From NCBI RefSeq assembly GCF_050920415.1, contig NZ_CP169309.1: a stretch of 64,000 nt of DNA. One strand, written 5' to 3'. The DNA comes from Escherichia coli (GTDB lineage Bacteria > Pseudomonadota > Gammaproteobacteria > Enterobacterales > Enterobacteriaceae). The notes beneath the pieces are model-generated. The model made no database searches, was not told where the DNA came from, and saw nothing but the letters and a program-made list of their open reading frames with translations. Each line of letters starts with the position of its first letter. The stretch's first letter is position 1. Below, piece by piece: positions 12,615 to 28,324 of the stretch. Both the position numbers and the translations under genes were made by a program.

Positions 12615-13296
12615 TTATGGATCTGTTGATTGTTTTAACTTACGTGGCGCTGGCATGGGCGGTCTTTAAAATCTTCCGTATTCCGGTGAATCAGTGGACG
12701 CTGGCGACGGCGGCGCTGGGAGGCGTTTTTCTGGTAAGCGGTTTGATTTTGTTGATGAACTACAACCACCCTTACACTTTTACCGCACAGAAAGCGGTGA
12801 TTGCTATTCCCATCACGCCACAGGTGACGGGGATCGTGACTGAAGTCACTGACAAGAATAATCAGCTTATTCAGAAGGGCGAGGTGCTTTTTAAGCTCGA
12901 CCCGGTACGTTATCAGGCGCGAGTCGACAGACTTCAGGCTGACCTGATGACGGCGACGCATAATATAAAGACGCTGCGCGCGCAGCTCACTGAAGCGCAA
13001 GCCAATACCACCCAGGTTTCAGCGGAGCGTGACCGCTTGTTTAAAAATTATCAACGTTACCTGAAAGGCAGCCAGGCGGCGGTAAATCCGTTCTCAGAAC
13101 GTGATATCGACGATGCGCGGCAGAATTTTCTCGCGCAGGATGCGCTGGTGAAAGGTTCGGTGGCGGAACAGGCGCAAATCCAGAGCCAGCTCGACTGTCA
13201 GCGCCAATGATATAAGACAGTAATTCACCATTTGGATTGTCCGCTCCACCCAACATGTTGTTTCCTTAAGGTTCCTACACCACAAAGGGAACACTC

Positions 13297-14343
13297 ATGC
13301 TGAGCAGAGAGGACTTTTACATGATAAAGCAAATGCGCCAGCAAGGTGCGTATATTGTTGATATTGCCACTCAGGTTGGTTGCTCTGAGCGGACTGTCAG
13401 ACGGTACCTGAAATACCCGGAACCTCCGGCCAGAAAAACACGCCACAAAATGGCCAAACTCAAGCCGTTCATGGACTATATCGACATGCGTCTGGCTGAG
13501 AATGTCTGGAACGGCGAGGTCATCCTGGCGGAAATCAAAGCGATGGGTTATACCGGTGGCCGTTCCATGTTGCGTTACTACATCCAGCCCAAACGTAAGA
13601 TGCGGCCATCGAAGAAAACGGTTCGCTTCGAAACTCAGCCCGGTTACCAGCTACAGCATGACTGGGGAGAAGTTGAGGCTGAGGTTGCCGGGCAACGATG
13701 CAGGGTTAACTTCGCGGTTAATACGCTGGGGTTCTCACGTCGCTTCCATGTCTTCGCGGCACCAAAGCAGGATGCTGAACATACCTATGAGTCACTGGTC
13801 CGCGCCTTTCGCTACTTCGGCGGCAGCGTGAAAACCGTGCTGGTCGATAACCAGAAAGCCGCAGTGCTGAAAAATAACAACGGGAAGGTGGTGTTCAACT
13901 CCGGGTTCCTGCTGCTGGCCGATCACTATGGCTTCCTGCCACGGGCCTGCCGTCCACGAAGGGCCAGAACCAAAGGTAAGGTGGAACGGATGGTGAAATA
14001 CCTCAAGGAAAACTTCTTCGTCCGGTACCGCCGGTTCGACAGCTTCGCCCATGTTAATCAGCTACTGGAGCAGTGGATGGCTGACGTTGCCGACAGGCGG
14101 GAACTTCGCCAGTTCAGGCAGACACCGGAACAGCGCTTCACGCAGGAACAGGTGCATCTGCAGGCGCTGCCAGGTACGGACTTCGATACCAGCTACTTCG
14201 ATATCCGTCATGTCTCCTGGGATGGCTATATCGAGGTTGGCGGGAACCGTTACAGCGTGCCGGAAAGCCTGTGTGGCCAGCCGGTATCAATACGGATCTC
14301 GCTGGATGATGAACTGCGATTTACAGTAATGAGCAACAGGTAG
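13297..14343 (+). CDS. istA: IS21-family transposase IstA, apparently frameshifted near its 3' end
   Basis: HTH N-terminus and DDE-like core. The ORF stops at 14343, but another frame continues ...[13 protein letters not shown] to a TGA at 14466-14468 that overlaps the istB ATG, the usual istA/istB junction. Confidence 0.7.
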   Translation: MLSREDFYMIKQMRQQGAYIVDIATQVGCSERTVRRYLKYPEPPARKTRHKMAKLKPFMDYIDMRLAENVWNGEVILAEIKAMGYTGGRSMLRYYIQPKRKMRPSKKTVRFETQPGYQLQHDWGEVEAEVAGQRCRVNFAVNTLGFSRRFHVFAAPKQDAEHTYESLVRAFRYFGGSVKTVLVDNQKAAVLKNNNGKVVFNSGFLLLADHYGFLPRACRPRRARTKGKVERMVKYLKENFFVRYRRFDSFAHVNQLLEQWMADVADRRELRQFRQTPEQRFTQEQVHLQALPGTDFDTSYFDIRHVSWDGYIEVGGNRYSVPESLCGQPVSIRISLDDELRFTVMSNR

Positions 14344-14455
14344 CATCGCACCGTCTCTGTTCGGCTGTATACGGCTGGCAGACCGTGCCGGAGCATCACG
14401 CCCCACTCTGGCAGCAGGTCAGTCAGGTGGAACACAGGCCGTTGAGTGCCTATGA

Positions 14456-15262
<807 letters not shown>

Positions 15263-15884
15263 TGACCAATAGCGGACATTAAAAATGGCGAAAAACGGCC
15301 AATAATCTTGGCGTTGACACGACAGTATGGTTAACGGTGAGCAGTCGCAGATTGTCAGCTTAAGGGCGCAGCTTACCGAAGCGAAATATAACCTTGAGCA
15401 GACCGTCATTCGCGCGCCGAGCAATGGCTACGTTACTCAGGTACTGATCCGCCCAGGTACATACGCAGCTGCCTTGCCGCTACGTCCGGTGATGGTTTTC
15501 ATCCCCGAGCAAAAACGGCAAATTGTCGCCCAATTTCGGCAGAACTCGCTGTTACGTCTGAAACCCGGCGATGATGCGGAAGTAGTGTTTAACGCGCTAC
15601 CTGGGCAGGTGTTCCACGGCAAACTGACTAGTATTTTACCTGTCGTGCCAGGTGGTTCGTATCAGGCGCAGGGGGTACTGCAATCATTAACCGTCGTACC
15701 CGGCACGGACGGTGTGCTGGGAACCATCGAACTGGACCCTAACGCTGATATCGATGCTTTACCCGACGGCATCTACGCCCAGGTGGCAGTTTACTCCGAC
15801 CATTTCAGCCATGTTTCGGTGATGCGGAAGGTGCTGCTAAGAATGACCAGTTGGATGCATTATCTTTATTTGGATCATTGAGGG

Positions 15885-16915: not shown

Positions 16916-17128
16916 TTATAAAAAATCCTGAATACATTGGTCCATCTGAAATGAATTGAAATTTATCCCATGCTGACTATTCATTTCATAAATCAACGTT
17001 TCACCAAAACTTGTTAATGACAAAGTTCCTTTGGATGTATTACATAAAAAATAATTATTTCCTGCGTTTAGAGTCCAGGGAATTCCAGATAAAAAAATAA
17101 AAATTAATGCTCTATCTATATTGCTCAT
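16916..17128 (-). CDS. Hypothetical small protein downstream of the orphan toxin fragment; possible immunity-gene remnant
   Basis: 70-aa ORF whose start overlaps the end of the orphan toxin ORF; AT-rich; no recognisable motif. Confidence 0.25.
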   Translation of the reverse strand: MSNIDRALIFIFLSGIPWTLNAGNNYFLCNTSKGTLSLTSFGETLIYEMNSQHGINFNSFQMDQCIQDFL

Positions 17129-18290
17129 AATTAGCCCTTATTCTGTCATCATATCCTCGCTGACTTTGCCCATTATAACATAGAGCAAAGTTAAGCCAAT
17201 CTTTATCTCTAATAGCACGCAATAATACAGGATTAGATTTTATGAAGTTAATGAATGCCGCCAGATGGTTTTTCTCTGACTCTGAAATCGATATTATAAA
17301 CTCTTCGGGCGAAGAGTACCCGGCAGCTTGGTAATTTGAAGCCAATATCTGAAATTTACCCCACGATGCCGATTTAAGCGCAGCTTGCTTATCTAAAACA
17401 TATGCACGAAGTAATTTTTGATATTGCTCCGATCGTGTTCCATAACCGCCAGAACGGCTGTTGGAAATATCAGGTTGAGAATCATACACACCATTCGTAT
17501 ATCGATGGAAATGATGTCTTTCAAAAAGAATTGAGGGGACGTAATCATCTTCTTGTTCAAATTTAAAATAGCTACCGGAACTACCAGTTTCAGTTTTTGC
17601 AACAGCTTTAATTGCAGCCACTTCGCATTGTAGTGTCCTTGCAGCATTTTCATAGTCTGCATCATCAATGGTATCTCCGTTATAAAATCGTAAAAATTCC
17701 AATGGAATAAGTTCATTATTTACAGGAGTTTTTGGGTAATTGCTATTATTAATAGCATTCAAAAACACAACCGGATGAAAATGCCACACAGCATCATCAC
17801 TATTAAACGGAGACACCCCGCTCATCCACTCCAGATCCAGCTGCCACTTTTCACAGTATGCCACTTCCTCGGGTCCAGATCTTTATAAAACCCTTCCCAG
17901 CGTCCCGTCGAGCGACCGCCGTACCACTCGCTGTGGTGTCTGACTGTCAGACGATTCACCACATTTCTCACCAGTGGTTCACGCACGGTCAGCGCCTGTC
18001 TGATCTCTTCCTCCGTCACTTTTCCATCACCGTCCTGATCCATACCCGCCATCAGCTCACGATAAAAGGGCGGTACCTGCTCATACAGCCACTCATCTCC
18101 CTGTTCTGCGGCACGGCTTATTGAGTCAAACGCTTCCGGCACCCATCCTTCGTACGGGCTGTACGTCATGTCACCGCTGCTGTTCTCCTCCAGCGGCTGA
18201 AAACCCAGCTTCAGTAAATCATACTGTCCGGCCTCTTCAACATCCTTCTGTGGCAGCCAGCCGGTTCCGGTGATATTAAGCCGCCTCTGG
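17112..18290 (-). pseudogene. Orphan 3' fragment of a VgrG-linked effector paralogue: EF-hand linker plus an alternative C-terminal muramidase-like domain, frameshifted near 17860
   Basis: ORFs 17822-18391 and 17112-17864 are collinear with residues about 383-556 of the 829-aa effector at 19290-21779 (NITGTGWLPQKDVEEAGQ...DQDGDGKVTEEE...AYCEKWQLDLEWMSGVSPFNSDDAVWHFHPVVFL), then diverge into a different C-terminal domain (...FERHHFHRYT...SWGKFQILASNY...). Confidence 0.55.
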
Positions 18291-18572
18291 TTTCCTTTTA
18301 ATAAAGCACTCGTGAAATTTTGCAGGACTGATACAGGATACAACTCTGGCAATGGTATCGTGAACAGGAATACCATTATCAAAATCACCATATTGCTTCA
18401 AAAAATCGAGATGTGTTTCCCCAAAATCCTCTATATCTTCCCAGCCTTCTGCACCCGAAATAACGGCACAAATAGTCAACAGTAGAATATCCGATAATTT
18501 ATGTTGCACTTTCCAGGCTTGTCTGTAATCGGGGATAATAGAAATATGTCCCATCAATTTTTTAAGTTCCAT
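18276..18572 (-). pseudogene. H-repeat (ISAs1-family) transposase N-terminal fragment, about 90 codons, fused to the orphan toxin fragment
   Basis: [60 protein letters not shown]... matches the N-terminus of H-rpt transposases; a second copy with its upstream sequence is repeated at about 16150-16600. Confidence 0.6.
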
Positions 18573-18873: not shown

Positions 18874-19284
18874 TCATCCAGTCCATTTGCAATCAGTACC
18901 ATCATCATTATATGCCTCAATATTTTCTTCAAACTCAGTTGTTTTCCCACTTATTGATTTATAATGAAACAAATTAAATCTTGCACCTTGTGTGGAAACA
19001 ACATACAACCCATTAATTTTTCCATTTACAACCTCGCTCCATGCATAAGAAAATTCAGAAGGCCTGTCATCGAAAGTCACTTCTAATTTATTTATAAACG
19101 CAAGAGGTATAAATTTTGAGGATTTCTCATAAATCACATAACCTAAAAAAATATCGCCAGACGATATTTCAACAAACTTTAAATTTGTTTTCCCAGCGCT
19201 AAAACAGCCTACCGTTGTTTGTTGTTTAGCCAATAAACAACAAGGCACCAAACAAAACAGTAAAACCAATAAGTTAACTTTCAT
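18874..19284 (-). CDS. Small secreted protein, putative immunity protein for the effector at 19290-21779
   Basis: N-terminal Sec-type signal peptide MKVNLLVLLFCLVPCCLLA; GGAG ribosome-binding site; starts 5 bp after the effector stop; AT-rich. Confidence 0.5.
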   Translation of the reverse strand: MKVNLLVLLFCLVPCCLLAKQQTTVGCFSAGKTNLKFVEISSGDIFLGYVIYEKSSKFIPLAFINKLEVTFDDRPSEFSYAWSEVVNGKINGLYVVSTQGARFNLFHYKSISGKTTEFEENIEAYNDDGTDCKWTG

Positions 19285-19289
19285 ATCAA

Positions 19290-21779
19290 TTACTCCAGTT
19301 CAGTTATTCGTCTCTCTACAAATGTGGATATATTCCTTTTTTCTATTCCATATACTTTTCTATCACCCTCACGCCCTTCCTGAGGAAACGGATGCAGGTC
19401 AATTAATTCTTTCGCCCTTCTATAACCTTTTAATGCTTCTTCGTTACTCTTGATCGTCCCTCTTCGGGAGCTATCAGGATCATGCCATATCCCCCATCCC
19501 AAAGCATATACTTTATTATCATATACGTCACTATCATCAAACAAGAAATCGTCGTTCATTGCTTTCTGATTTAAATGCTCGGCAGCAAGTGAGGTAACCA
19601 ATTTATTAAATATCGACAACCGTTCATCATAATGATTATACCCTCCATTAATCACTGCTGTAATTTTATTAAAATCATCATTTTTAGCATCTTCATTTAT
19701 TCTTTTGAATATATTGAAATACCAAAACGCAGATAATACGCAATGTGGGGAGGATATAAGTTTATCTCTTGCGGAATCTGAAGATGTTACGTCCTCATTG
19801 ATATATTCCCCATAGGCGGTGTAATTACTTTCCCCTGTAACTTGTATTAAGCCTCGGCCATACCACGGACTATATGAAGCTGATTCACCATTAATTTCTT
19901 TGGTATATCTAAAATAACCGCTCTCGTGAATAATTTGAGCAAGAAAATGGGCTTTTTCTCTACAAGTGGTCATACCAAACCGAATAAACCCTGCATTTAT
20001 ATCGTAGAGGTACCTTTTGAGAAGACCTTCACTTACTGCAGGAGCAACTTTTTTTAATTCATCTAATGTTATATCTCTGTTGCAAGCACACACAGATTTG
20101 GAATTAATAGCGTCCAAAAACACAACCGGATGAAAATGCCACACAGCATCATCACTATTAAACGGAGATACCCCGCTCATCCACTCCAGATCCAGCTGCC
20201 ACTTCTCACAGTATGCCACTTCCTCTGTGTCCAGATCTTTATAAAATCCTTCCCACCGCCCTGTCGAGCGCCCTCCGTACCATTCGCTGTGGTGTTTAAC
20301 TATCAGATGATTCACCACATTTCTCACCAGTGGTTCACGCACGGTCAGCGCCTGTCTGATCTCTTCCTCCGTCACTTTTCCATCACCGTCCTGATCCATA
20401 CCCGCCATCAGCTCACGATAAAAGGGCGGTACCTGCTCATACAGCCACTCATCTCCCTGTTCTGCGGCACGGCTTATTGAGTCAAACGCTTCCGGCACCC
20501 ATCCTTCGTACGGGCTGTACGTCATGTCACCGCTGCTGTTCTCCTCCAGCGGTTGAAAACCCAGCTTCAGTAAATCATACTGTCCGGCCTCTTCAACATC
20601 CTTTTGTGGCAGCCAGCCGGTTCCGGTGATATTAAACCACCACTGCTGCGATTCATCCGTGATCGGTGTCGTGGCTTCCCGCGGAAGAACGCGCTGAGCA
20701 CCCAGTGTGGCTGCGGTTGCGGTAAATACCTCCTGTCCCGGAACGGCCTGCCGGGTGTATAAAATTATCCCTTTTGGTGCCAGAACAGTCCGTTTTTCTC
20801 CCTTAACGCCTGCCGGGTTGGATAAGAACTTTGGCATATTCGGGTCTGTACTCAGAACCTCCAGATGGACGAACCACTCGCGCTCAATCTCACCGCTTCC
20901 CTCGCCAGGATAATCCTCGCATCCCATAAATCCGACCGGTGTTCCGGCACTGACTTTCCACTCTTCCGTTTCGTCGACCGTCTGTACCGAGTCAAAAATG
21001 CCTTTTGCCTTCGCCTTCTGCATCCACTCAGGCATCAGCATCTGTATTTCGCCATCTGACTCCATCAGATCCGGATCCAGGGTCACCCAGTACTGCTCAT
21101 TCCCCGGTTTATTGCCTTCCAGCAGGCGAACCAGTCCGAATGTCGTCAGGACCGGCTGGCCGTTATTGGTCACGTAAAAACGTCCGGTCCGGGATGACAC
21201 AAACCGATCTCCCGCATTAAGTGTCCTGTTTCCGCTGATTTTCGGGGGTATCCAGTACGTGGCATGATCTCCGCTTTCCTGCCCCTCGGGAAGGCCGTTC
21301 TTTCCCGGGATGTATCGGTGCAGCAATATGCCACCATGCCCGGTTTTAACTTTATAGCAGGGGGAGCCGGGATAATCGTTCACCGGGGCCAGATGCATAT
21401 AGAGACAGTAAAATTCCAGCCAGCTTTCTTTTTTTTGCGGGTCTGGCTGGCACTGCGATTTCACCAGAACAAATGTGCTGCTGTAACGGAGTTGCTGCCC
21501 TTTGTAGGTGCCTTTCAGGTAATCATTATTTATCCGGTACGCCGCAATGGTGCCATCGGCCATAAACTGAAGAGGAACCGGTTCTCCGGTAGCGGCGGTA
21601 TCCGGTTTCAGGGCTGATAACGGATTAGACACGTCACTGATATGTATCCCGCCGTGCCACAGCCCGTTTCCACCCAGCAGCCAGGTTCCGTGCGCTTCTT
21701 TGTCAATAAGCCGCATTATCTCATCCAGCGAGCGAAACTCTTTGCCTTCTTTATCCCTGATGGGATGGCTGATTTTCAT
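19290..21779 (-). CDS. VgrG-linked multidomain putative T6SS effector (829 aa): N-terminal M23-like region, EF-hand loop, C-terminal GH19-like glycoside hydrolase
   Basis: Starts 9 bp after the vgrG stop. WHGGIHI, LYMHL and GTPVGFMG...FVHLEV resemble M23 (lysostaphin/LytM) motifs; DQDGDGKVTEEE is a canonical 12-residue EF-hand loop; AHFLAQIIHESG...YGRGLIQVTGESNY resembles GH19 signatures. No signal peptide. Confidence 0.6.
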   Translation of the reverse strand: MKISHPIRDKEGKEFRSLDEIMRLIDKEAHGTWLLGGNGLWHGGIHISDVSNPLSALKPDTAATGEPVPLQFMADGTIAAYRINNDYLKGTYKGQQLRYSSTFVLVKSQCQPDPQKKESWLEFYCLYMHLAPVNDYPGSPCYKVKTGHGGILLHRYIPGKNGLPEGQESGDHATYWIPPKISGNRTLNAGDRFVSSRTGRFYVTNNGQPVLTTFGLVRLLEGNKPGNEQYWVTLDPDLMESDGEIQMLMPEWMQKAKAKGIFDSVQTVDETEEWKVSAGTPVGFMGCEDYPGEGSGEIEREWFVHLEVLSTDPNMPKFLSNPAGVKGEKRTVLAPKGIILYTRQAVPGQEVFTATAATLGAQRVLPREATTPITDESQQWWFNITGTGWLPQKDVEEAGQYDLLKLGFQPLEENSSGDMTYSPYEGWVPEAFDSISRAAEQGDEWLYEQVPPFYRELMAGMDQDGDGKVTEEEIRQALTVREPLVRNVVNHLIVKHHSEWYGGRSTGRWEGFYKDLDTEEVAYCEKWQLDLEWMSGVSPFNSDDAVWHFHPVVFLDAINSKSVCACNRDITLDELKKVAPAVSEGLLKRYLYDINAGFIRFGMTTCREKAHFLAQIIHESGYFRYTKEINGESASYSPWYGRGLIQVTGESNYTAYGEYINEDVTSSDSARDKLISSPHCVLSAFWYFNIFKRINEDAKNDDFNKITAVINGGYNHYDERLSIFNKLVTSLAAEHLNQKAMNDDFLFDDSDVYDNKVYALGWGIWHDPDSSRRGTIKSNEEALKGYRRAKELIDLHPFPQEGREGDRKVYGIEKRNISTFVERRITELE

Positions 21780-21788
21780 GTTCAGTCC

Positions 21789-23990
21789 TTATCGTGAGAA
21801 TCTTCCCGGCCGTTGTGGCGGTACCTTATCCTGCTGGGGAGGATCAAAGGCTTCCTGTACATTTTTCCGTGGTGGCTCCGCCCCTTCAGTTCCAGGTCCG
21901 CCATTGTCATAATCTGCCAGCGCTTTCAAAACCGCCGGTCGTAGTGTCGGCACCGGCGTTCCCGGACTACCGCCGCTATTGAGATTGATTTTCGGCCCGA
22001 CGATGTCCACGCCCCCTGAATGGATGACCACAAACGAACCACCCACCTTCAGGGTGATTTTACCGCCACTCTCCAGTACGATTTCATCCCGGACCTTCAT
22101 TCCCAGCGCACCGGTAATCTTCCTCGCCAGGTCGCCCTTCACCTCCAGACTGTGCGTTCCCTCCACCAGACTGATATGGTTCCCCGTCGTCTTATGCTCC
22201 TGCTTCCCTTCCACCGTCACTTTACGGTCGTTTCTGACATACAGGCCGTCATCGTGACTCACGCTCACCGTCCGGTCATTCGTCACCTTCAGCGTCTGGT
22301 CATTACGTACCGTTATGCGCCGGTCGTTCGCCACCGTGATACTCTGGTCGTGGCCCCCTTCTTTTCTGGTGCCGACCTCAACCGTCTGCCCCTTCACCAC
22401 CCTTATCTTCTGGTCGTTACCGATGGTCTCCGTATGGTCATGCTTCACGTCCGTCGTCCGGTCGTTAAGCACCTCCGTGTCCATGTTCTTCTGCGCGTGG
22501 ATATACACCTGCTCACTGTCCGTCGCATCCTCGAAACGCAGTTCATTAAAGCCGCTTCCTTTATAGGTCTTCGAGCGGATGGTCATCTGCGTCCGCGTGC
22601 CCGGTAAATCCCCCGGTGAACGGTTATCTTCATGGTAGGTCCGCCCCGTCACAATGGGCTGGTCCGGGTCGCCGTTCAGAAAGTCCACTATCACTTCCTG
22701 ACCCACACGCGGTATCGCCAGATTGCCGAACCCCGGTCCCGCCCATGCCTGCGACACCCGTATCCAGCATGAACTCTCCTCCGTCATCCCGTGATAACGG
22801 TCCCAGTGAAACTTCACCCGTACCCGGCCATGCTCGTCGCAGAATATCTCCTCGCCCTTCGGCCCGGTCACGATGGCACTCTGCGGGCCGTCCACCTTCG
22901 GCTTCGGCAGGGGCTGTGAGCGCCAGGTCCGGTCTGCCGGGATGACCGTGATATGGTTACTCAGTGTCGTTCCCCTCCCCTGGCTCCCGTGCAGCGCCTG
23001 CGGCTGGCTCCCCGTCAGCGTGCTGCTCACCACCTGCCACTCACGGTTCGGGTTCGCTCCCTGTACCGGATGCCCCGTCAGGGTGAACCGCCGTCCCGGC
23101 CACAGCGCCGGGGAGTTACTGATACCTGTGGCGGTTTCAGCACTGTTACGCAGCCCTTCCAGCCGGTAGCGGGTAAAGTCCTGACCATGCTGCTCGTCCT
23201 TGTAGCGCCCCGGCCAGTCCAGGATTTTGTACTGCTTCAGTTGCTCGTTGAGGTTTTCAGCATCCTCAATGTAAATACCCGGCCAGTCCGGCACCTTAAA
23301 CGTGTGGTCTTTTGAACGCACCTGCGAGGGCCGCACCTGCGCCTGGTAGCGGAACAGGCTGATGCACGCCGTCGTCACCTCACGGGTGTTCGGGTTAAAC
23401 GGTATCTCCCCGTACACCGGCAGGCCCGCCACATCATCGCACAGCGTGAGCGTCTGCTCCGGGCTGTCGTCAGCGTATCTGTCATAAAAGAAGATGCCTT
23501 CCTCCGCCCACAGCCGGGTCAGAAACGCCAGGTCGCTTTCACCGTACTGGACGCAGAACTCCCGTGCCGGGTGGCTCTCATAAAAGCGCGGCGTCCACTG
23601 CGTCACTCCGTCCTCGTTTAACAGCGTGGCGGAGATGGCCTGAATGTCCTGCTGCTGGAAGATTCGGTAGTTCTGCCGCAGCCCGCTGCGCCACAGGGGC
23701 GGGCGTATCTGAAGGTGGTACTGCATCTGCCAGCCGTTGTGCTCCTTCATGCCTAACCCCGACACCACACCGCTCACATAACGCAGCGCCGTGCCACCCT
23801 GCCAGATGGTCAGCACGGCCCCCTTCTCCAGCAGCTTCTCCGCCGTCTGGCGGAACGAGTCGCTGGCAACGTCCACATCCAGGACGAACGGCGATGAGTA
23901 TGCCTGCGTGAGGCGGAAATCCACCACCGCGAACGTCTCCGGCACCAGTCCGTCCACCGTCAGCGTAAAACGCAGCCCTTTTAATGACAT
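21789..23990 (-). CDS. vgrG: Type VI secretion spike protein VgrG (733 aa)
   Basis: MSLKGLRFTLTVDGL... N-terminus, gp27/gp5-like core with beta-helix repeats (VRNDQTLKVTNDRTVSVSHDD...), GGAGG-type RBS. Confidence 0.9.
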   Translation of the reverse strand: MSLKGLRFTLTVDGLVPETFAVVDFRLTQAYSSPFVLDVDVASDSFRQTAEKLLEKGAVLTIWQGGTALRYVSGVVSGLGMKEHNGWQMQYHLQIRPPLWRSGLRQNYRIFQQQDIQAISATLLNEDGVTQWTPRFYESHPAREFCVQYGESDLAFLTRLWAEEGIFFYDRYADDSPEQTLTLCDDVAGLPVYGEIPFNPNTREVTTACISLFRYQAQVRPSQVRSKDHTFKVPDWPGIYIEDAENLNEQLKQYKILDWPGRYKDEQHGQDFTRYRLEGLRNSAETATGISNSPALWPGRRFTLTGHPVQGANPNREWQVVSSTLTGSQPQALHGSQGRGTTLSNHITVIPADRTWRSQPLPKPKVDGPQSAIVTGPKGEEIFCDEHGRVRVKFHWDRYHGMTEESSCWIRVSQAWAGPGFGNLAIPRVGQEVIVDFLNGDPDQPIVTGRTYHEDNRSPGDLPGTRTQMTIRSKTYKGSGFNELRFEDATDSEQVYIHAQKNMDTEVLNDRTTDVKHDHTETIGNDQKIRVVKGQTVEVGTRKEGGHDQSITVANDRRITVRNDQTLKVTNDRTVSVSHDDGLYVRNDRKVTVEGKQEHKTTGNHISLVEGTHSLEVKGDLARKITGALGMKVRDEIVLESGGKITLKVGGSFVVIHSGGVDIVGPKINLNSGGSPGTPVPTLRPAVLKALADYDNGGPGTEGAEPPRKNVQEAFDPPQQDKVPPQRPGRFSR

Positions 23991-24145: not shown

Positions 24146-25060
24146 TTAATAATTCCTCAACGAATAAGGAGGAGATGCCCTGTCCCCATCAATAGTAACC
24201 ACGACCTGATTTGATCTTATTTTGAATATATTATCATTACCGCCATGATAGCCAAATCGTGCTAAAAAATCCTGAAATAGACCAGGTCCTCTATAAGGTC
24301 CACAGATTCTCCAAACCCGCCACTCCTCTATGCCATACGTTATTTTATCTATAGGATTAGTACACTCTCTTTCTGCCCGCCAGTTCATAATAGAAAGAAA
24401 ATACTCATATATATATTGTTCTGCAAACCACTCTTGATTAACTATTGTAAATTCTACCGTCCCTATATTATAACGATGAATGCCCGGTAAAAAGGCATAA
24501 TAATCGTTCAATGTGACATCAAAGGATAGCTCTTTCCCTGGTAATATCTCGCGCCAAACAGATTTACTTTTCCATTCACCAAAGCTACATTTTGTTTTTT
24601 TTAAAAAATCCAACTGAATGTTATCCATTATCGGTATAAACACACCACTACACAAGGAAGAGTAAGGCCCGCCGTTAACGTCAAGAGGAAGAGTTAGTCG
24701 ATGAACAAAATAAGATCCCTGGCTTTTATTCGATAAAACCACTGCAGCTGCTACAATATTTTCTTTCTGATGCACGGAAAGATGAAGATATATTTTATTT
24801 TTATCCTGATTATACTGACTCTCATTTTTACTGATAGTATAATATTGAAAAACAGCATAGGCTGAAAGATCATCATAATAATCATAATAATTAAGCCTTG
24901 TCGGTTCTACACGAGGATAGACACCAAGTTTTTCCATTACTCCATTCCAATGTAACTTCCCATATCTGTAATGAACCGCATAATCGCCAGAGATATCATA
25001 AGCAAATATTGGATGCACCCAAGAAAAAAAAGCAATAAAAACAATCCATCTAGCAAGCAT
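24146..25060 (-). CDS. Secreted protein with Sec signal peptide, putative immunity protein for the HExxH effector
   Basis: Start placed at the ATG at 25058-25060 (strong GGGGGAG RBS), giving MLARWIVFIAFFSWVHPIFA as signal peptide; 25 bp after the effector stop. Confidence 0.5.
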   Translation of the reverse strand: MLARWIVFIAFFSWVHPIFAYDISGDYAVHYRYGKLHWNGVMEKLGVYPRVEPTRLNYYDYYDDLSAYAVFQYYTISKNESQYNQDKNKIYLHLSVHQKENIVAAAVVLSNKSQGSYFVHRLTLPLDVNGGPYSSLCSGVFIPIMDNIQLDFLKKTKCSFGEWKSKSVWREILPGKELSFDVTLNDYYAFLPGIHRYNIGTVEFTIVNQEWFAEQYIYEYFLSIMNWRAERECTNPIDKITYGIEEWRVWRICGPYRGPGLFQDFLARFGYHGGNDNIFKIRSNQVVVTIDGDRASPPYSLRNY

Positions 25061-25084: not shown

Positions 25085-25930
25085 TCAATATGGTACAGGA
25101 ATCTCGAAATAACGTTCGATATTATATGCATTCTGAAACAGTTCTGATTTTTTATCATTTTTTAATTTAGTGGCATGAGCAATATATTCGTCACCTGTAC
25201 TATACTCTATATCTACCGGCATATCTTCCGTCCACATGCCTCCAAACTTAAGTGAATCCCCGTACCTTATAAAGTGAGATAGTTCATGGCAGAGTGTCGA
25301 TGCCTTAGAGTTTTCCCCAGTGAATGGCCTATCTATAAATCTTTGTCCTATAGTTATACTTACCAAACTTTTAAAGCTTCCAGATTTTACACCCAAAATC
25401 TGATCGTAAGTTACATTGGCAGCATAAGCGTCATTATCTGTACAATTCACAAAGTTACCAATTTTGGGCCTGATTACGTCTTTGTCAACATATTCATTAC
25501 CCCCTTTGTCATTAAGAACAAGATTACAATTGGCATCACGTTTGAGGAAATGGTCATGAACGGTAACGTCTACACAATCACCTTCCACAGATAATTCCCC
25601 ACATATCTCATACAGGCGAGTAACGCCATTTCTCATATAATCCCTTGCCTTTATATTCTCTGTAAACAGAGTATTACGCCCCCCGAAAGGGAACTTTAAT
25701 TTAATATAAGTATTTCCATCAATGCCAAATATATTTATAAATTCCTGATTTTGTTCCGCCCCCCATTTATCACCAAGATCTTCTACTCTTTTTTTCAATA
25801 CAGCCATCTGCGCCTTCAGAGCCTCTCTCATCATTATTTTAAAATCATTAGTAATTTTCCCCTCCTTTAAAACTACACACTGTTCACCACTCTGGCTTTT
25901 TCCGCTCGTACTACCCTTTTCATCTCCCAT
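25085..25930 (-). CDS. VgrG-linked putative zinc-metallopeptidase-like effector (281 aa, HExxH)
   Basis: CHELSHF (HExxH) at residues 215-219, with a possible downstream Asp ligand in STGDEY; hydrophilic N-terminus with no signal peptide; AAGGAGGA RBS; 81 bp after the vgrG stop. Confidence 0.5.
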   Translation of the reverse strand: MGDEKGSTSGKSQSGEQCVVLKEGKITNDFKIMMREALKAQMAVLKKRVEDLGDKWGAEQNQEFINIFGIDGNTYIKLKFPFGGRNTLFTENIKARDYMRNGVTRLYEICGELSVEGDCVDVTVHDHFLKRDANCNLVLNDKGGNEYVDKDVIRPKIGNFVNCTDNDAYAANVTYDQILGVKSGSFKSLVSITIGQRFIDRPFTGENSKASTLCHELSHFIRYGDSLKFGGMWTEDMPVDIEYSTGDEYIAHATKLKNDKKSELFQNAYNIERYFEIPVPY

Positions 25931-26011: not shown

Positions 26012-28324
26012 CTATTCATTAATCCCTCCCCATATCATATCGATATTCAAATGCAACAATCTGACGTCTATTGTCTGCTCGCTGTCAGTGGTGAATATTT
26101 CCGTATACCCATCCTTATCCGTTTCTCCGCGGGTCTGCGTGCCGTCCTCAAAGAAGGCAATGTAGCGTGTCTCTGAATACGGTATCCCGTCATCGTCTGT
26201 AAAATGGAACTGGAGAGTATATTTTTCAGGGTTCTCATCATCATTCTCATCCTCCAGCGCCTCCAGTACAACCGGTTGCAGCGTCGATACTGGCGTCCCC
26301 GGACCTCCCCCACCATTCAGGTTTATCTTCGGCCCCACTATATCCACGCCGCCAGAGTGTATCACCACGAACGAACCGCCCGCTTTCAGGCTTATCTGGC
26401 TGCTGCTCTCCAGCACGATATCCCCGTCCACCTTTATCCCCAGCGCGCCACTCACCTTCTCCGCCAGGTCACCCTTCACCTCCAGGCTGTGTTTCCCCTC
26501 CACCAGGCTGATATGGTTTCCCGTCGTCTTATGCTCCTGCTTCCCTTCCACCGTCACTTTACGGTCGTTTCTGACATACAGGCCGTCATCGTGACTCACG
26601 CTCACCGTCCGGTCATTCGTCACCTTCAGCGTCTGGTCATTACGTACCGTTATGCGCCGGTCGTTCGCCACCGTGATACTCTGGTCGTGACCCCCTTCTT
26701 TTCTGGTGCCGACCTCAACCGTCTGCCCCTTCACCACCCTTATCTTCTGGTCGTTACCGATGGTCTCCGTATGGTCATGCTTCACGTCCGTCGTCCGGTC
26801 GTTAAGCACCTCCGTGTCCATGTTCTTCTGCGCGTGGATATACACCTGCTCACTGTCCGTCGCATCCTCGAAACGCAGTTCATTAAAGCCGCTTCCTTTA
26901 TAGGTCTTCGAGCGGATGGTCATCTGCGTCCGCGTGCCCGGTAAATCCCCCGGTGAACGGTTATCTTCATGGTAGGTCCGCCCCGTCACAATGGGCTGGT
27001 CCGGGTCGCCGTTCAGAAAGTCCACTATCACTTCCTGACCCACACGCGGTATCGCCAGATTGCCGAACCCCGGTCCCGCCCATGCCTGCGACACCCGTAT
27101 CCAGCATGAACTCTCCTCCGTCATCCCGTGATAACGGTCCCAGTGAAACTTCACCCGTACCCGGCCATGCTCGTCGCAGAATATCTCCTCACCCTTCGGC
27201 CCGGTCACGATGGCACTCTGCGGGCCGTCCACCTTCGGCTTCGGCAGCGGCGCGTGACGCCACGTCCTGTCTGCCGGTATCACCTCAAACTGATTGCTCA
27301 GTGTCGTCCCTTCACCGTGACTCCCGTGCAGCGCCTGCGGCTGTTCTCCCCGCAGTGTGCTTCCCACAACCTGCCATTCCCGGTTCAGCGTCGCTGACGG
27401 ATGGCCCGTCAGCCGGAACCGCGTTCCCGGCCACAGCCGCGCCGTGTTACACACCCCGCTCGCCGTCTCCGCCCCGTTCCGCCACCCTTCCGTCTGGTAA
27501 CGCGCAAAATCCTGGCCATGCTGCTCATCCTTGAAACGCCCCGGATAATCAAATATCTCGTACTGCGTTCCCTGTCCGTTCAGGCTCTCCCCGTCATGGC
27601 TGTAGTACCCCGGCCACCCCGGCGTTTTGAACGTATAATCCTGCGTCTCCACCGACGCCACGCTTATCTGCGCACGGTAACGGAAGTCGCGGATGTACTC
27701 TGTCGTGCCTCCGGTCGTGGTATTCGGGTTAAACGCCAGCGCCCCCATTCCCGTCAGCCCCGCCACGTCATCACACACCGCCAGCTTCTGTTCCGGCCCG
27801 TCCTGACTGCAGCGTTCATAAAAGAAGATACCTTCCTCCGCCCACAGCCGGGTCAGGAATGTCAGGTCGCTCTCCCCGTACTGCACGCAGAACTCCCGCG
27901 CCGGGTGCGCCTCATAGAACAGCGGCATCCACGCCGTCACCCCGTTCTCTTCAAGAAGCTGCGCTGATATCGTCTGAATGTCCTGCTGCTGGAAGATACG
28001 GAAGTTCTGCCGTAACCCTGCCCGCCACAGCGGCGGGCTGATGCTCAGGGAATAACGCATCTGCCAGTCGTTGTTCTCACCGAGCTGCACCTCTGTCACG
28101 ATACCGCTGACGTAACGCTGTGCAGTGTCGCCCTGCCAGACCGTCAGCACCGCGCTTTTCTCCAGAAAATCTTCTGCCGTCAGGTCAGACAGTCCGCTGG
28201 CGATATCCACATCCAGGATGAACGGTGTGCAGTGGTGCTGGTACAGACGGAAGCTCACCACCGCCGTCGCCATCTCCACAATACCGTCCACCGACAGCGT
28301 GAAACGTAATCCTTCTGCTGCCAT
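26012..28324 (-). CDS. vgrG: Type VI secretion spike protein VgrG with a divergent acidic C-terminal extension (about 770 aa)
   Basis: Start set at MAAEGLRFTLSVDG (ATG at 28322-28324); core nearly identical to the vgrG at 21789-23990; C-terminal 100 aa (...EDENDDENPEKYTLQFHFTDDDGIPYSE...) is unique. Confidence 0.9.
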   Translation of the reverse strand: MAAEGLRFTLSVDGIVEMATAVVSFRLYQHHCTPFILDVDIASGLSDLTAEDFLEKSAVLTVWQGDTAQRYVSGIVTEVQLGENNDWQMRYSLSISPPLWRAGLRQNFRIFQQQDIQTISAQLLEENGVTAWMPLFYEAHPAREFCVQYGESDLTFLTRLWAEEGIFFYERCSQDGPEQKLAVCDDVAGLTGMGALAFNPNTTTGGTTEYIRDFRYRAQISVASVETQDYTFKTPGWPGYYSHDGESLNGQGTQYEIFDYPGRFKDEQHGQDFARYQTEGWRNGAETASGVCNTARLWPGTRFRLTGHPSATLNREWQVVGSTLRGEQPQALHGSHGEGTTLSNQFEVIPADRTWRHAPLPKPKVDGPQSAIVTGPKGEEIFCDEHGRVRVKFHWDRYHGMTEESSCWIRVSQAWAGPGFGNLAIPRVGQEVIVDFLNGDPDQPIVTGRTYHEDNRSPGDLPGTRTQMTIRSKTYKGSGFNELRFEDATDSEQVYIHAQKNMDTEVLNDRTTDVKHDHTETIGNDQKIRVVKGQTVEVGTRKEGGHDQSITVANDRRITVRNDQTLKVTNDRTVSVSHDDGLYVRNDRKVTVEGKQEHKTTGNHISLVEGKHSLEVKGDLAEKVSGALGIKVDGDIVLESSSQISLKAGGSFVVIHSGGVDIVGPKINLNGGGGPGTPVSTLQPVVLEALEDENDDENPEKYTLQFHFTDDDGIPYSETRYIAFFEDGTQTRGETDKDGYTEIFTTDSEQTIDVRLLHLNIDMIWGGINE

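Follow-up and report, generated by a model that had tools for sequence, protein, structure and literature searches.

A transthyretin-like domain with a variable tail at the C-terminus of an Escherichia coli VgrG as a probable docking site for an M35-like effector

The window considered here, i.e., the whole stretch of 64 kb of DNA that was analysed, contains two vgrG genes in an orphan vgrG island of Escherichia coli (at the rhsA locus), and raises the question of how the encoded spike proteins are connected to their cargo. As originally predicted, neither of the two cassettes includes an adaptor gene: the gaps between the cassette genes measure 81, 9, 155, 9, and 5 bp, no other minus-strand ORF of at least 60 aa fits into them, no Pfam match to DUF4123, DUF1795, or DUF2169 was obtained with any cassette protein, and the non-VgrG cassette proteins matched no NCBIfam family. 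We consider it probable (roughly 70%) that the 3' end of the first gene, vgrG-A, codes for a built-in adaptor, and that an M35-like effector is docked as cargo on a transthyretin-like (TTR) domain and a following tail. This reading would explain how the island arms the T6SS with two periplasm-acting toxins without any adaptor genes. The gain in knowledge is incremental, because cargo docking by C-terminal TTR domains of VgrG proteins is already established, and the VgrG-A TTR/M35 case is well supported as an ordinary instance of this known type. A possible new element is the combination of a generic TTR socket with a variable specificity tail. All features described below are located on the minus strand.

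The two VgrG paralogues

Both vgrG (tssI) genes are complete, as had been claimed: vgrG-A (26012..28324, 770 aa, with an ATG start codon at 28324) and its TTR-free paralogue vgrG-B (21789..23990, 733 aa) are represented by intact ORFs, their products both match TIGR03361 with E values of about 1e-177 (1.8e-177 for VgrG-A), and the RefSeq annotation of E. coli MFDS1022581 lists tssI genes at identical coordinates. VgrG-A contains the gp27-like base, the OB-fold, and the gp5-like beta-helix of a VgrG/TssI spike in this order, followed by a linker, the TTR domain, and the tail. The corresponding Pfam matches are Phage_GPD (aa 33-328, E 1.6e-75), Phage_base_V (aa 385-451), and Gp5_trimer_C (aa 468-622), and a match to VgrG1 (4mtk, 8.6e-92) was obtained in the PDB. 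The Pfam model DUF2345 reached merely an E value of 0.34 (aa 558-665), and the DUF2345-extended architecture (COG4532) known from VgrG1 of EAEC and from VgrG2b is absent. Such an extension is present in the VgrGs of Klebsiella, PAR, and Phytobacter; as VgrG-A lacks it, the protein should be regarded as a gp5-type spike bearing a grafted TTR domain.

The "near-identical core" previously ascribed to the two paralogues is restricted to a central tract of 728 bp with 2 mismatches, as identified by exact-block matching (26520..27247, equivalent to 22183-22910 in vgrG-B), which covers about aa 360-602 and probably represents a gene-conversion tract. Elsewhere, the relationship is mosaic, with about 53-88% identity per 60-nt window in the N-terminal gp27 part, 72-77% in the final rungs of the beta-helix, and 79% over the 697 aa of the protein alignment. 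The C-terminal sequences had been quoted correctly and are indeed different, the tails being unrelated by alignment. The extension of VgrG-A is absent from VgrG-B, as stated, but comprises about 75-80 aa (aa ~690-770) instead of 100, because the alignment with the paralogue reaches up to aa 695/696; the net difference in length is 37 aa. Consequently, the range 26012-26330 (aa 665-770) assigned to the extension still includes about 25 residues common to VgrG-B, and only its remainder is specific for VgrG-A.

The C-terminal extension of VgrG-A and the adjoining genes

As read from the sequence, the beta-helix of VgrG-A is connected to the TTR domain by an acidic linker (aa 688-701, 26222..26263, EALEDENDDENPEK). 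It is probably flexible, showing pLDDT values of 52-75 in both structural models, and homologous VgrGs contain longer acidic linkers of Gly, Ser, Asp, and Glu in the equivalent position. The linker is followed by the conserved core of the TTR-like beta-sandwich (aa 702-743, 26096..26221), which is 91-93% identical to the TTR cores of the VgrGs from strains UTI89, M11957, and ABU83972, and by a variable 3' segment (aa 744-770, 26015..26095), consisting of the last two TTR strands and a 14-aa tail (LHLNIDMIWGGINE). These final 14 residues (aa 757-770, 26015-26056) are poorly ordered in AF2 models. The tails end with …LLHLNIDMIWGGINE in the window type and with …LLFANDDFLSMEGHYGR in the UTI89 type, and the variable 3' segment of vgrG-A was found at the DNA level in only 3 of 5426 E. 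coli genomes. A scan for promoters and terminators between 23900 and 28600 yielded counts close to those of shuffled sequences and was uninformative.

The extension belongs to a family of 91 representatives at E <= 1e-3, most of them located at VgrG C-termini, and a chance match can therefore be dismissed. The profile of this family matches the TTR domain of VgrG1 from EAEC (6sjl_A, residues 781-831, E 3e-9) and that preceding the metallopeptidase of VgrG2b (6h56_A, residues 8-67, E 3.5e-10). Searches with the single extension sequence gave no Pfam match and a best E value of 0.59 with phmmer against the PDB, and a word-indexed homologue search returned short contig-end fragments only. The modelled domain is a small beta-sandwich superposing on the TTR domain of VgrG1, which is also its best structural match. 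Profile homology and fold therefore agree with the original prediction of a transthyretin-like domain as in some E. coli VgrGs, which passed every test that was run, and it is well supported that the extension represents a small TTR-like domain plus a short tail of variable sequence, a type of element for which the attachment of a toxin to the spike has been described before.

A close functional precedent is the VgrG1-Tle1 pair of EAEC (PDB 6SJL/6SK0; Flaugnatti et al. 2016 and 2020), for which PMC10715212 and PMC9860674 summarise that the C-terminal TTR domain binds the phospholipase Tle1; in the former, an N-terminal strand of Tle1 is described to complement the TTR domain. Both VgrG1 and VgrG-A carry a homologous C-terminal TTR-like beta-sandwich on a flexible linker, and in both cases the cargo effector is encoded beside vgrG in the absence of a separate adaptor. 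They differ in that VgrG1 contains a DUF2345 extension and flanking helices providing secondary contacts to Tle1, both of which are missing in VgrG-A. Moreover, the cargo in EAEC is a Tle lipase, whereas that predicted for VgrG-A is an M35-like metallopeptidase. In VgrG-A, the last TTR strand (E67-72 in the fused model described below) is succeeded by about 14 residues, compared to 10 residues after the matched stretch in 6SJL.

The predicted cargo effector, an M35-like zinc metallopeptidase of 281 aa (25085..25930), is encoded 81 bp downstream of vgrG-A with no ORF in between. Its assignment is based on the family alignment, on profile matches to M35 structures (2x3a, 3.6e-5; 1g12, 4.4e-5), and on the fused model, whose matches include AsaP1 (E 5.6e-5) and an M35 peptidase from Grifola (1ge6, target-normalised TM-score 0.75). 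An HExxH zinc site is thus present within an M35-like catalytic fold, with the motif HELSH at aa 215-219 invariant in the family alignment, as are the pattern C-H-E-x-S-H and the motif YNIERYF. In the position of the GTxDxxYG motif with the Asp serving as third ligand, the window effector contains GGMWTED and most homologues GGMGTDD, which is aspzincin-like but non-canonical. No match was obtained in Pfam or NCBIfam, and the name given by PGAP to an orthologue is "M35 family metalloendopeptidase." The N-terminus is rich in Ser, Thr, Gly, and Lys and is predicted to contain beta-strands.

VgrG2b of Pseudomonas aeruginosa (6H56; PMC6899460) likewise contains a homologous TTR domain, located between its spike part and a metallopeptidase toxin of the HExxH type, and a kinship of the two peptidases was considered. 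None was detected with either single sequences or profiles against 6h56, and the cassette was therefore not treated as a "split VgrG2b," despite the homologous TTR domains. The peptidase of VgrG2b is a TTR-fused, thermolysin-like gluzincin (DUF4157), whereas that of the window is M35-like and encoded by a separate gene. The immunity protein of VgrG2b is periplasmic and synthesized with a signal peptide (PMC6899460), and a similar arrangement is suggested here by the next gene of the cassette (24146..25060), coding for 304 aa from the RefSeq start with a hydrophobic, signal-like N-terminal segment. This product is probably the periplasmic immunity protein for the M35-like effector, as judged from its sequence features and homologues: it shows 32% identity to the products of the genes following the M35 effectors in ABU83972 (E 5e-30) and M11957 (2e-21), and 45% to the immunity protein of E. 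coli PAR. It has no match in Pfam. For an M35-like effector of a B2 E. coli, toxicity has been reported to be restricted to periplasmic targeting (PMC7904677).

Pairing and co-variation of VgrG ends and effectors

A gene for an M35-like protein directly follows a TTR-ending VgrG in all 19 intact cassettes examined, regardless of the spike clade. These include strains M11957, NC101, UTI89, and ABU83972, where a "peptidase M35" and then a hypothetical gene come directly after a VgrG sharing this TTR core, and the same VgrG(TTR)-M35 order occurs in two E. coli PAR cassettes and one Salmonella cassette. In a genome scan seeded solely with the effector alignment, all intact M35-like genes (11 of 11, from Phytobacter, Buttiauxella, Trabulsiella, Citrobacter, Escherichia sp., and Rahnella) turned out to be directly preceded by a TTR-ending VgrG ORF. 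The genes of the 19 intact cassettes either overlap or are separated by 0-91 bp, and no gene is inserted between vgrG and effector in any of them; the cognate effector is thus encoded directly downstream, without a separate adaptor gene, in the window as well as in all of these cassettes. The spikes of Phytobacter, Rahnella, and PAR belong to another VgrG clade of the DUF2345 type (about 25% identity), and since the pairing extends across clades, the unit of TTR domain, effector, and immunity protein appears to be portable between scaffolds.

Experimental data on a related module are available from E. coli PAR, where the effector has been shown to be toxic, to be counteracted by its immunity protein, and to bind to a C-terminal VgrG fragment (PMC10673891). 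The fragment, termed "DUF2345-PAR," interacts with M35-PAR and thereby links it to VgrG-PAR (PMC10673891). It corresponds to an ORF of 250 aa, which forms the C-terminal part of a VgrG interrupted by a frameshift, and ends in the same TTR family with a tail of type I; it also includes rungs of the beta-helix, so the binding is not pinned to either the TTR domain or the tail. Compared to the module of the window, TTR plus tail are 65%, the effectors 47%, and the immunity proteins 45% identical, whereas the PAR module resides on a T6SS-2-type, DUF2345-bearing spike that is split by the frameshift and only 25% identical to the intact VgrG-A. The authors credited DUF2345 rather than the TTR domain or tail with the binding, and equated the effector with the metallopeptidase of VgrG2b (PMC10673891). 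As their adaptor fragment contains both TTR and tail, these may be the real docking part. A probable cargo-docking role of the VgrG-A extension is supported by the strict co-occurrence in gene order across genera and two VgrG clades, and by the published PAR pull-downs (PMC10673891).

The divergence among the effectors follows that of the last ~27 residues of VgrG (aa 744-770) and not that of the TTR core. In 15 non-redundant, phylogenetically related pairs, M35 divergence correlated with that of the last 22 aligned VgrG residues (Spearman 0.60, p 0.0002), but not with that of the TTR core (Spearman 0.09, p 0.21), and the Mantel rho values ranged over two runs from 0.53 to 0.60 for the tail (p <= 0.0005) and from 0.02 to 0.09 for the core. 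Accordingly, the window tail is identical in the Salmonella cassette holding the closest effector (59% identical), whereas the TTR core is 93% identical to that of M11957, a UTI89-type cassette whose effector shares merely about 43% identity. The GC content decreases along the same path, from 0.60 (spike) via 0.49 (TTR core) and 0.39 (tail) to values of 0.37 and 0.36 for the genes of the M35-like effector and the immunity protein, respectively. On this comparative evidence, aa 744-770 of VgrG-A are regarded as the candidate specificity element, and the co-variation provides a cheap rule by which the cargo specificity of VgrG proteins may be predicted or engineered from their last ~27 residues.

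Docking model, alternative explanations, and the second cassette

In the proposed arrangement, the built-in adaptor of VgrG-A would consist of the short acidic flexible linker, a TTR-like beta-sandwich of ~55 residues, and the 14-residue tail, and would carry the M35-like zinc metallopeptidase encoded 81 bp downstream. Going beyond the fold and homology, gene order, co-occurrence, co-variation, and composition shown above, we infer that both proteins bind each other physically and that, by analogy to VgrG1-Tle1, the N-terminal strand(s) of the effector may complete the TTR sheet (fold complementation), which would allow up to three effectors to be attached laterally to the trimeric spike. A generic socket would be provided by the conserved TTR core, and aa 744-770, which most likely give a second, allele-specific contact, would form one exchangeable module together with the effector and immunity genes. 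The effector would probably act in the periplasm of the prey and be neutralised by the adjoining signal-peptide-bearing protein. An AF2 model of a TTR-linker-M35 fusion, built from a paired alignment and evaluated for secondary structure and pLDDT only, is consistent with this arrangement (pLDDT 81.6, pTM 0.77): effector residues 7-11 and 20-25 become beta-strands (block mean pLDDT about 85 and 78), and both the first and the last strand of the TTR domain are longer.

A two-site recognition has been described for VgrG17-Tae17 of Acinetobacter baumannii, where the TTR domain and residues just beyond it (G1069, W1075) are both needed (PMC11796386). VgrG-A is proposed to resemble this system, in which a TTR-like sandwich completed by an effector strand is combined with an essential post-TTR segment containing Gly and Trp, and the C-terminus of VgrG is acidic in both cases. 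The spike and the effector of that system, a peptidoglycan hydrolase, are unrelated to the window pair, and the N-terminus of the window effector is not clearly basic. Charge complementarity between an acidic VgrG end and a basic effector N-terminus was considered as a further determinant; it is seen in several homologues, whose 30 N-terminal residues carry net charges of +2 to +8, but not in the window pair, with a net charge of -1, and was not retained as an argument.

The same patterns may be viewed differently if the TTR domain docks the effector and the variable ~27 residues play no part in recognition, being co-inherited with the effector and immunity genes by linkage, with homologous recombination anchored 5' in the conserved TTR core. 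The 91-93% identity of the TTR cores among Escherichia cassettes with three different tails and effector subtypes fits this explanation, as do the onset of the GC drop inside the TTR domain, the likeness to C-terminal toxin displacement in Rhs and CDI loci, and the final six residues of VgrG-A, which are still disordered (pLDDT below 50) in the fused model. We nevertheless regard it as less likely than not, since the type-I tail (…RLL[HSN][QL][NS]IDM[ILV]xGG[VI]x[E]) is conserved, with identities of 62-91% between Escherichia, Salmonella, Phytobacter, Buttiauxella, and Trabulsiella. In the same comparisons, identity has fallen to 40-59% for the effectors and to 53-84% for the cores. The retention of the tail under these circumstances indicates purifying selection, and the residues just past the TTR domain of VgrG17 are essential for delivery (PMC11796386).

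Loading of the effector by an adaptor or chaperone whose gene is located elsewhere in the genome (of the DUF4123, DUF1795/EagR, DUF2169, or Tec/Tap type), leaving at most a secondary contact to the TTR domain, appears improbable. Such genes are sometimes unlinked, and the window covers 64 kb of the genome, but the direct succession of vgrG and effector in the 19 intact cassettes and the binding of M35-PAR by the VgrG C-terminal fragment alone during co-expression in E. coli (PMC10673891) argue against this. Still less probable is a function of the Ig/TTR-like domain as a spike decoration with another role, such as binding of PAAR or a cap, adhesion to the prey, or spacing, which would explain neither why the domain is strictly paired with a single effector family nor why this pair is portable between spike clades; moreover, PAAR binding in EAEC is independent of the TTR domain (PMC10715212).

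Extending the docking of the M35-like effector on TTR domain and tail to Enterobacterales in general, we tentatively suggest, at less than even odds, a two-part code in which a generic TTR socket is combined with a hypervariable post-socket tail deciding which allele is loaded. The socket would accept a Ser/Thr/Gly/Lys-rich N-terminal strand common to unrelated toxins (M35-like, Ntox44, and others), and the tail of ~15-27 residues would be swapped together with the effector and immunity genes via recombination inside the TTR domain. If this were true, the last ~25 residues of a VgrG could reveal its effector specificity, which could then be re-programmed by a swap of these residues, and a PPxRxGRxSR-like motif of VgrG-B would represent a second, TTR-independent tail code used across unrelated spikes.

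The specific tail of VgrG-B (aa ~692-733, 21792..21917) comprises about 40 aa with an abundance of Pro and charged residues, is unrelated to that of VgrG-A, does not represent a TTR domain, and ends with VPPQRPGRFSR. A similar terminal motif closes 785-aa VgrGs of the DUF2345 type that precede members of the same effector family in Klebsiella, Cronobacter, Yokenella, and Rahnella. The PPxRxGRxSR-like motif is viewed as the candidate site for docking of the predicted effector of this cassette via its conserved N-terminal region, a protein of 829 aa (19290..21779). It is followed by a gene for a 136-aa protein with a signal-like N-terminus (18874..19284), which gave no family matches and, from its position and sequence, is probably the immunity protein. 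The effector itself consists of a conserved N-terminal region of ~517 aa and a GH19/endolysin-like C-terminal toxin, with an EF-hand at aa 455-479, matches to PHROG endolysins at aa 536-747, and a weak match to GH19, and its 223 homologues carry various peptidoglycan hydrolases as their C-termini.

Organization of the two cassettes

The window corresponds to the chromosomal rhsA locus of E. coli, situated between yibH and yibF, and RefSeq annotation of strain MFDS1022581 agrees with every gene coordinate. Two T6SS cargo cassettes are arranged head to tail on its minus strand. Cassette A consists of vgrG-A (26012-28324; 770 aa, with Pfam gp27, OB, and gp5 domains) and the genes for a 281-aa HExxH protein (25085-25930) and a ~304-aa protein with a signal-like N-terminus (24146-25060), and cassette B of vgrG-B (21789-23990; 733 aa) and the genes for an 829-aa protein (19290-21779) and a 136-aa protein (18874-19284). 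Both VgrGs match TIGR03361 (~1e-177), and NCBIfam yields no match for the other cassette proteins. The original prediction that both cassettes lack an adaptor gene holds, as the gaps of 81, 9, 155, 9, and 5 bp contain no spare ORF and Pfam assigns none of the cassette proteins to an adaptor family. Past cassette B lie remnants of ISAs1 and orphaned toxin fragments. In the same island of the related strain RMDEC465, a third cassette (3010-5426 of the extracted locus L001) starts with a truncated vgrG, followed by genes for an effector with an S-type pyocin domain and for bacteriocin immunity; it is missing in the window, so cassettes turn over rapidly at this locus. The yibH-like HlyD-family gene (12617-15881) is split by the IS21-like element ISEc62 (istA/istB 13297-15262), whose istB copy carries a frameshift in the corresponding RefSeq record, and a gene for a YadA-like trimeric autotransporter adhesin of ~1650 aa (560-5536), unrelated to the VgrG finding, lies near the left end.

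VgrG-A and VgrG-B share 79% identity over 697 residues, and their genes form a mosaic at the DNA level. The near-identical core claimed for them is confined to the middle third (~aa 360-602), where a 728-bp tract (26520-27247 and 22183-22910, respectively) is the same save two bases, but does not extend to the flanks, which are ~65-70% identical in the gp27 half and 72-77% in the last helix rungs. This tract looks like the trace of a recent gene conversion between the neighbouring spike genes. The C-terminal extensions are indeed unrelated beyond ~aa 690, but the private part of VgrG-A comprises ~80 residues rather than the ~100 proposed: aa 688-701 form an acidic linker, aa 702-756 a structured domain, and the last 14 residues a tail. 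VgrG-B ends in a tail of its own of ~40 residues, in which Pro and charged residues are abundant.

The VgrG-A extension and its M35-like effector

As a single sequence, the VgrG-A extension matches nothing in Pfam and the PDB. Among 1.84 billion representatives searched exhaustively, there are 91 relatives, nearly all of them at the C-terminal end of VgrGs from several clades and sometimes in tandem. A profile built from a 76-sequence alignment of this family (A1) matches the transthyretin-like domain (TTR) of EAEC VgrG1 (6sjl_A residues 781-831, E 3e-9) and the TTR-like segment opening the crystal structure of the VgrG2b effector domain (6h56_A residues 8-67, E 3.5e-10), and the guess that the extension is transthyretin-like is therefore correct. 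Unlike EAEC VgrG1, VgrG-A lacks a DUF2345 extension (E 0.34).

The 281-aa effector is not recognised by Pfam or NCBIfam. Its family alignment (A2) shows C-H-E-x-S-H as an invariant motif, together with a GGMGTDD-like segment and, at the C-terminus, a YNIERYF motif, and the resulting profile matches the M35 peptidases AsaP1 (2x3a) and Grifola peptidyl-Lys endopeptidase (1g12) at ~4e-5. The modelled fold resembles the same structures, and PGAP labels an orthologue 'M35 family'. The next gene is homologous to those following other M35-like effectors (32-45% identity), and the hydrophobic, signal-like N-terminus of its ~304-aa product fits a periplasmic immunity protein. An M35-like effector of a B2 E. 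coli is toxic only upon periplasmic export (PMC7904677).

Effector motifs alone were used to seed a scan of 100,044 species genomes; it returned 12 loci, and all intact M35-like genes (11/11; from Phytobacter, Buttiauxella, Trabulsiella, Citrobacter, Escherichia sp., and Rahnella) are located directly downstream of a VgrG ORF with the family TTR at its end. The same order is found in two cassettes of E. coli PAR and one of Salmonella. The spikes of Phytobacter, Rahnella, and PAR belong to a separate DUF2345-type clade with ~25% identity to VgrG-A; therefore, the TTR-effector-immunity unit moves between scaffolds, in effect a natural swap experiment. More distant TTR-bearing VgrGs precede other toxins, one with Ntox44, and thus the TTR as such is not M35-specific. 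Among 5426 complete E. coli genomes, the TTR-core DNA (26100-26242) is present in 645 and the last ~88 bp of vgrG-A in only 3. Strains M11957, NC101, UTI89, and ABU83972 encode, at another chromosomal site than that of the window, a VgrG of 801 aa whose TTR core is 91-93% identical, with a 'peptidase M35' and a hypothetical gene immediately downstream.

Binding data exist for the PAR effector. M35-PAR is toxic, is neutralised by the next gene, and binds a separately encoded 'DUF2345-PAR' serving as bridge to the spike VgrG-PAR (PMC10673891). In the PAR genome, 'DUF2345-PAR' turned out to be a 250-aa ORF at the C-terminal end of a vgrG disrupted by a frameshift, terminating with the family TTR and a type-I tail (TIDVRLLNQNIDMILGGVHE); the effectors of PAR and the window are 47% identical and the immunity proteins 45%. 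Because 'DUF2345-PAR' is such a vgrG end, a VgrG C-terminus of this family binds an M35 effector, with helix, TTR, and tail present together in the fragment. The activity of the 'stand-alone DUF2345 adaptor' may thus reside in the TTR and tail rather than in DUF2345. The frameshifted gene (NZ_CP012379.1 2970120-2972637; 10120-12637 of locus L030) is a pseudogene in RefSeq.

In EAEC, Tle1 contributes its N-terminal strand to the VgrG1 TTR by fold complementation; this TTR is carried on a flexible linker (PMC10715212, PMC9860674). With the paired alignment A3 as input, VgrG-A aa 685-770 were modelled in fusion with the effector via a Gly-Ser linker. The model (pLDDT 81.6, pTM 0.77) contains beta-strands at effector residues 7-11 and 20-25 (block mean pLDDT ~85 and ~78), longer first and last TTR strands, and six disordered residues at the VgrG end. 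Read from strand and pLDDT changes only, the model is no more than suggestive of fold complementation. Effectors downstream of TTR-VgrGs have a similar Ser/Thr/Gly/Lys-rich start regardless of toxin type, and this segment, a strand in the fused model, may represent a generic plug complementing the TTR. Examples of such starts are STSGK, STKGT, NTTKGK, and ITKGF, preceding M35-like, Ntox44, or unknown toxins (window, 25850-25930; L026, from 3645; L027, from 3197; L028, from 5938). The proposed role of the VgrG-A extension as internal cargo adaptor is supported, the window representing a fresh instance of a known mechanism.

Variable tails and their possible role in effector specificity

The VgrG ends sort into tail types matching the effector subtypes. 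Type I (…RLLHLNIDMIWGGINE) occurs in the window, Salmonella, Phytobacter, B. izardii, T. guamensis, and PAR, and further types are …LLFANDDFLSMEGHYGR (UTI89), …LLTNDYYIFEVNCNEHQ (ABU83972), …PDFDTxWG… (Citrobacter, Buttiauxella), and short tails ending …W. Over 15 non-redundant pairs, divergence among the effectors is correlated with divergence in the 22 aligned residues at the VgrG end (Spearman 0.60, permutation p 0.0002), but not with TTR-core divergence (0.09, p 0.21). The GC content falls stepwise along the cassette: the spike has 0.60, the TTR core 0.49, the tail 0.39, the effector 0.37, and the immunity gene 0.36. Evolutionarily, aa 744-770 are thus part of the effector module.

Pure linkage, with recombination breakpoints inside the TTR, is a serious rival explanation of the co-variation of tails and effectors. 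Against it, type-I tails are 62-91% identical across genera, whereas the respective effectors fall to 40-59%. The pattern of tails, effectors, and GC content fits a two-site model like that of VgrG17-Tae17, which requires both the TTR and the residues immediately behind it (G1069, W1075; PMC11796386). The only possibly new element is the combination of a conserved socket with a variable tail, along with a TTR-effector-immunity module that is portable between spike clades.

VgrG-B and its 829-aa effector

The VgrG-B tail is not a TTR. Its effector is a polymorphic toxin that opens with a conserved region of ~517 residues (44-99% identity), and homologues are present in Klebsiella, Salmonella, Citrobacter, Enterobacter, Cronobacter, and others. 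The ends attached to this region are peptidoglycan hydrolases of varied kinds (GH19, N-acetylmuramidase, GH108, pesticin-like, CHAP, lysozyme). Among seven loci examined, six have a VgrG ahead of the effector gene, and one, of a distant homologue, has none. Five of the six encode a 785-aa DUF2345-type VgrG with the same 9-nt spacing as in the window, and the sixth (Salmonella) a gp5-type VgrG with an apparently shifted frame at its end. The five end with …VPPRRRGRISR, …SPPQRGRFSR, …KGKMSR, …TGKLSG, and …TGNISK (L018, L019, L022, L023, L024; VgrG ends at ~2991), compared to …VPPQRPGRFSR in VgrG-B. These VgrGs (from Klebsiella, Cronobacter, Yokenella, and Rahnella) are unrelated to VgrG-B, and their basic ends resemble that of VgrG-B (21792-21830), which may constitute a short linear docking motif. 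Similar ends preceding the same effector family, albeit in few examples, support the idea that the extension of VgrG-B is a candidate for cargo recognition as well.

The GC content of the effector gene drops from 0.53 to 0.38 at ~aa 517, the start of the toxin domain. Past an ISAs1 remnant, aa 382-517 recur as an orphan copy (97% identical) joined to another toxin end, an N-acetylmuramidase/endolysin-like domain, and the following 70-aa ORF might encode its immunity protein; together these pieces occupy 17822-18391, 17112-17864, and 16916-17128. Similar arrays of orphan toxins are seen at Rhs and CDI loci. Just upstream of the toxin junction, aa 455-479 (20343-20417) contain a calcium-binding EF-hand motif (Pfam E 4.8e-4), which is kept in the orphan fragment (17822-18169), named 'EF-hand domain-containing protein' in RefSeq.
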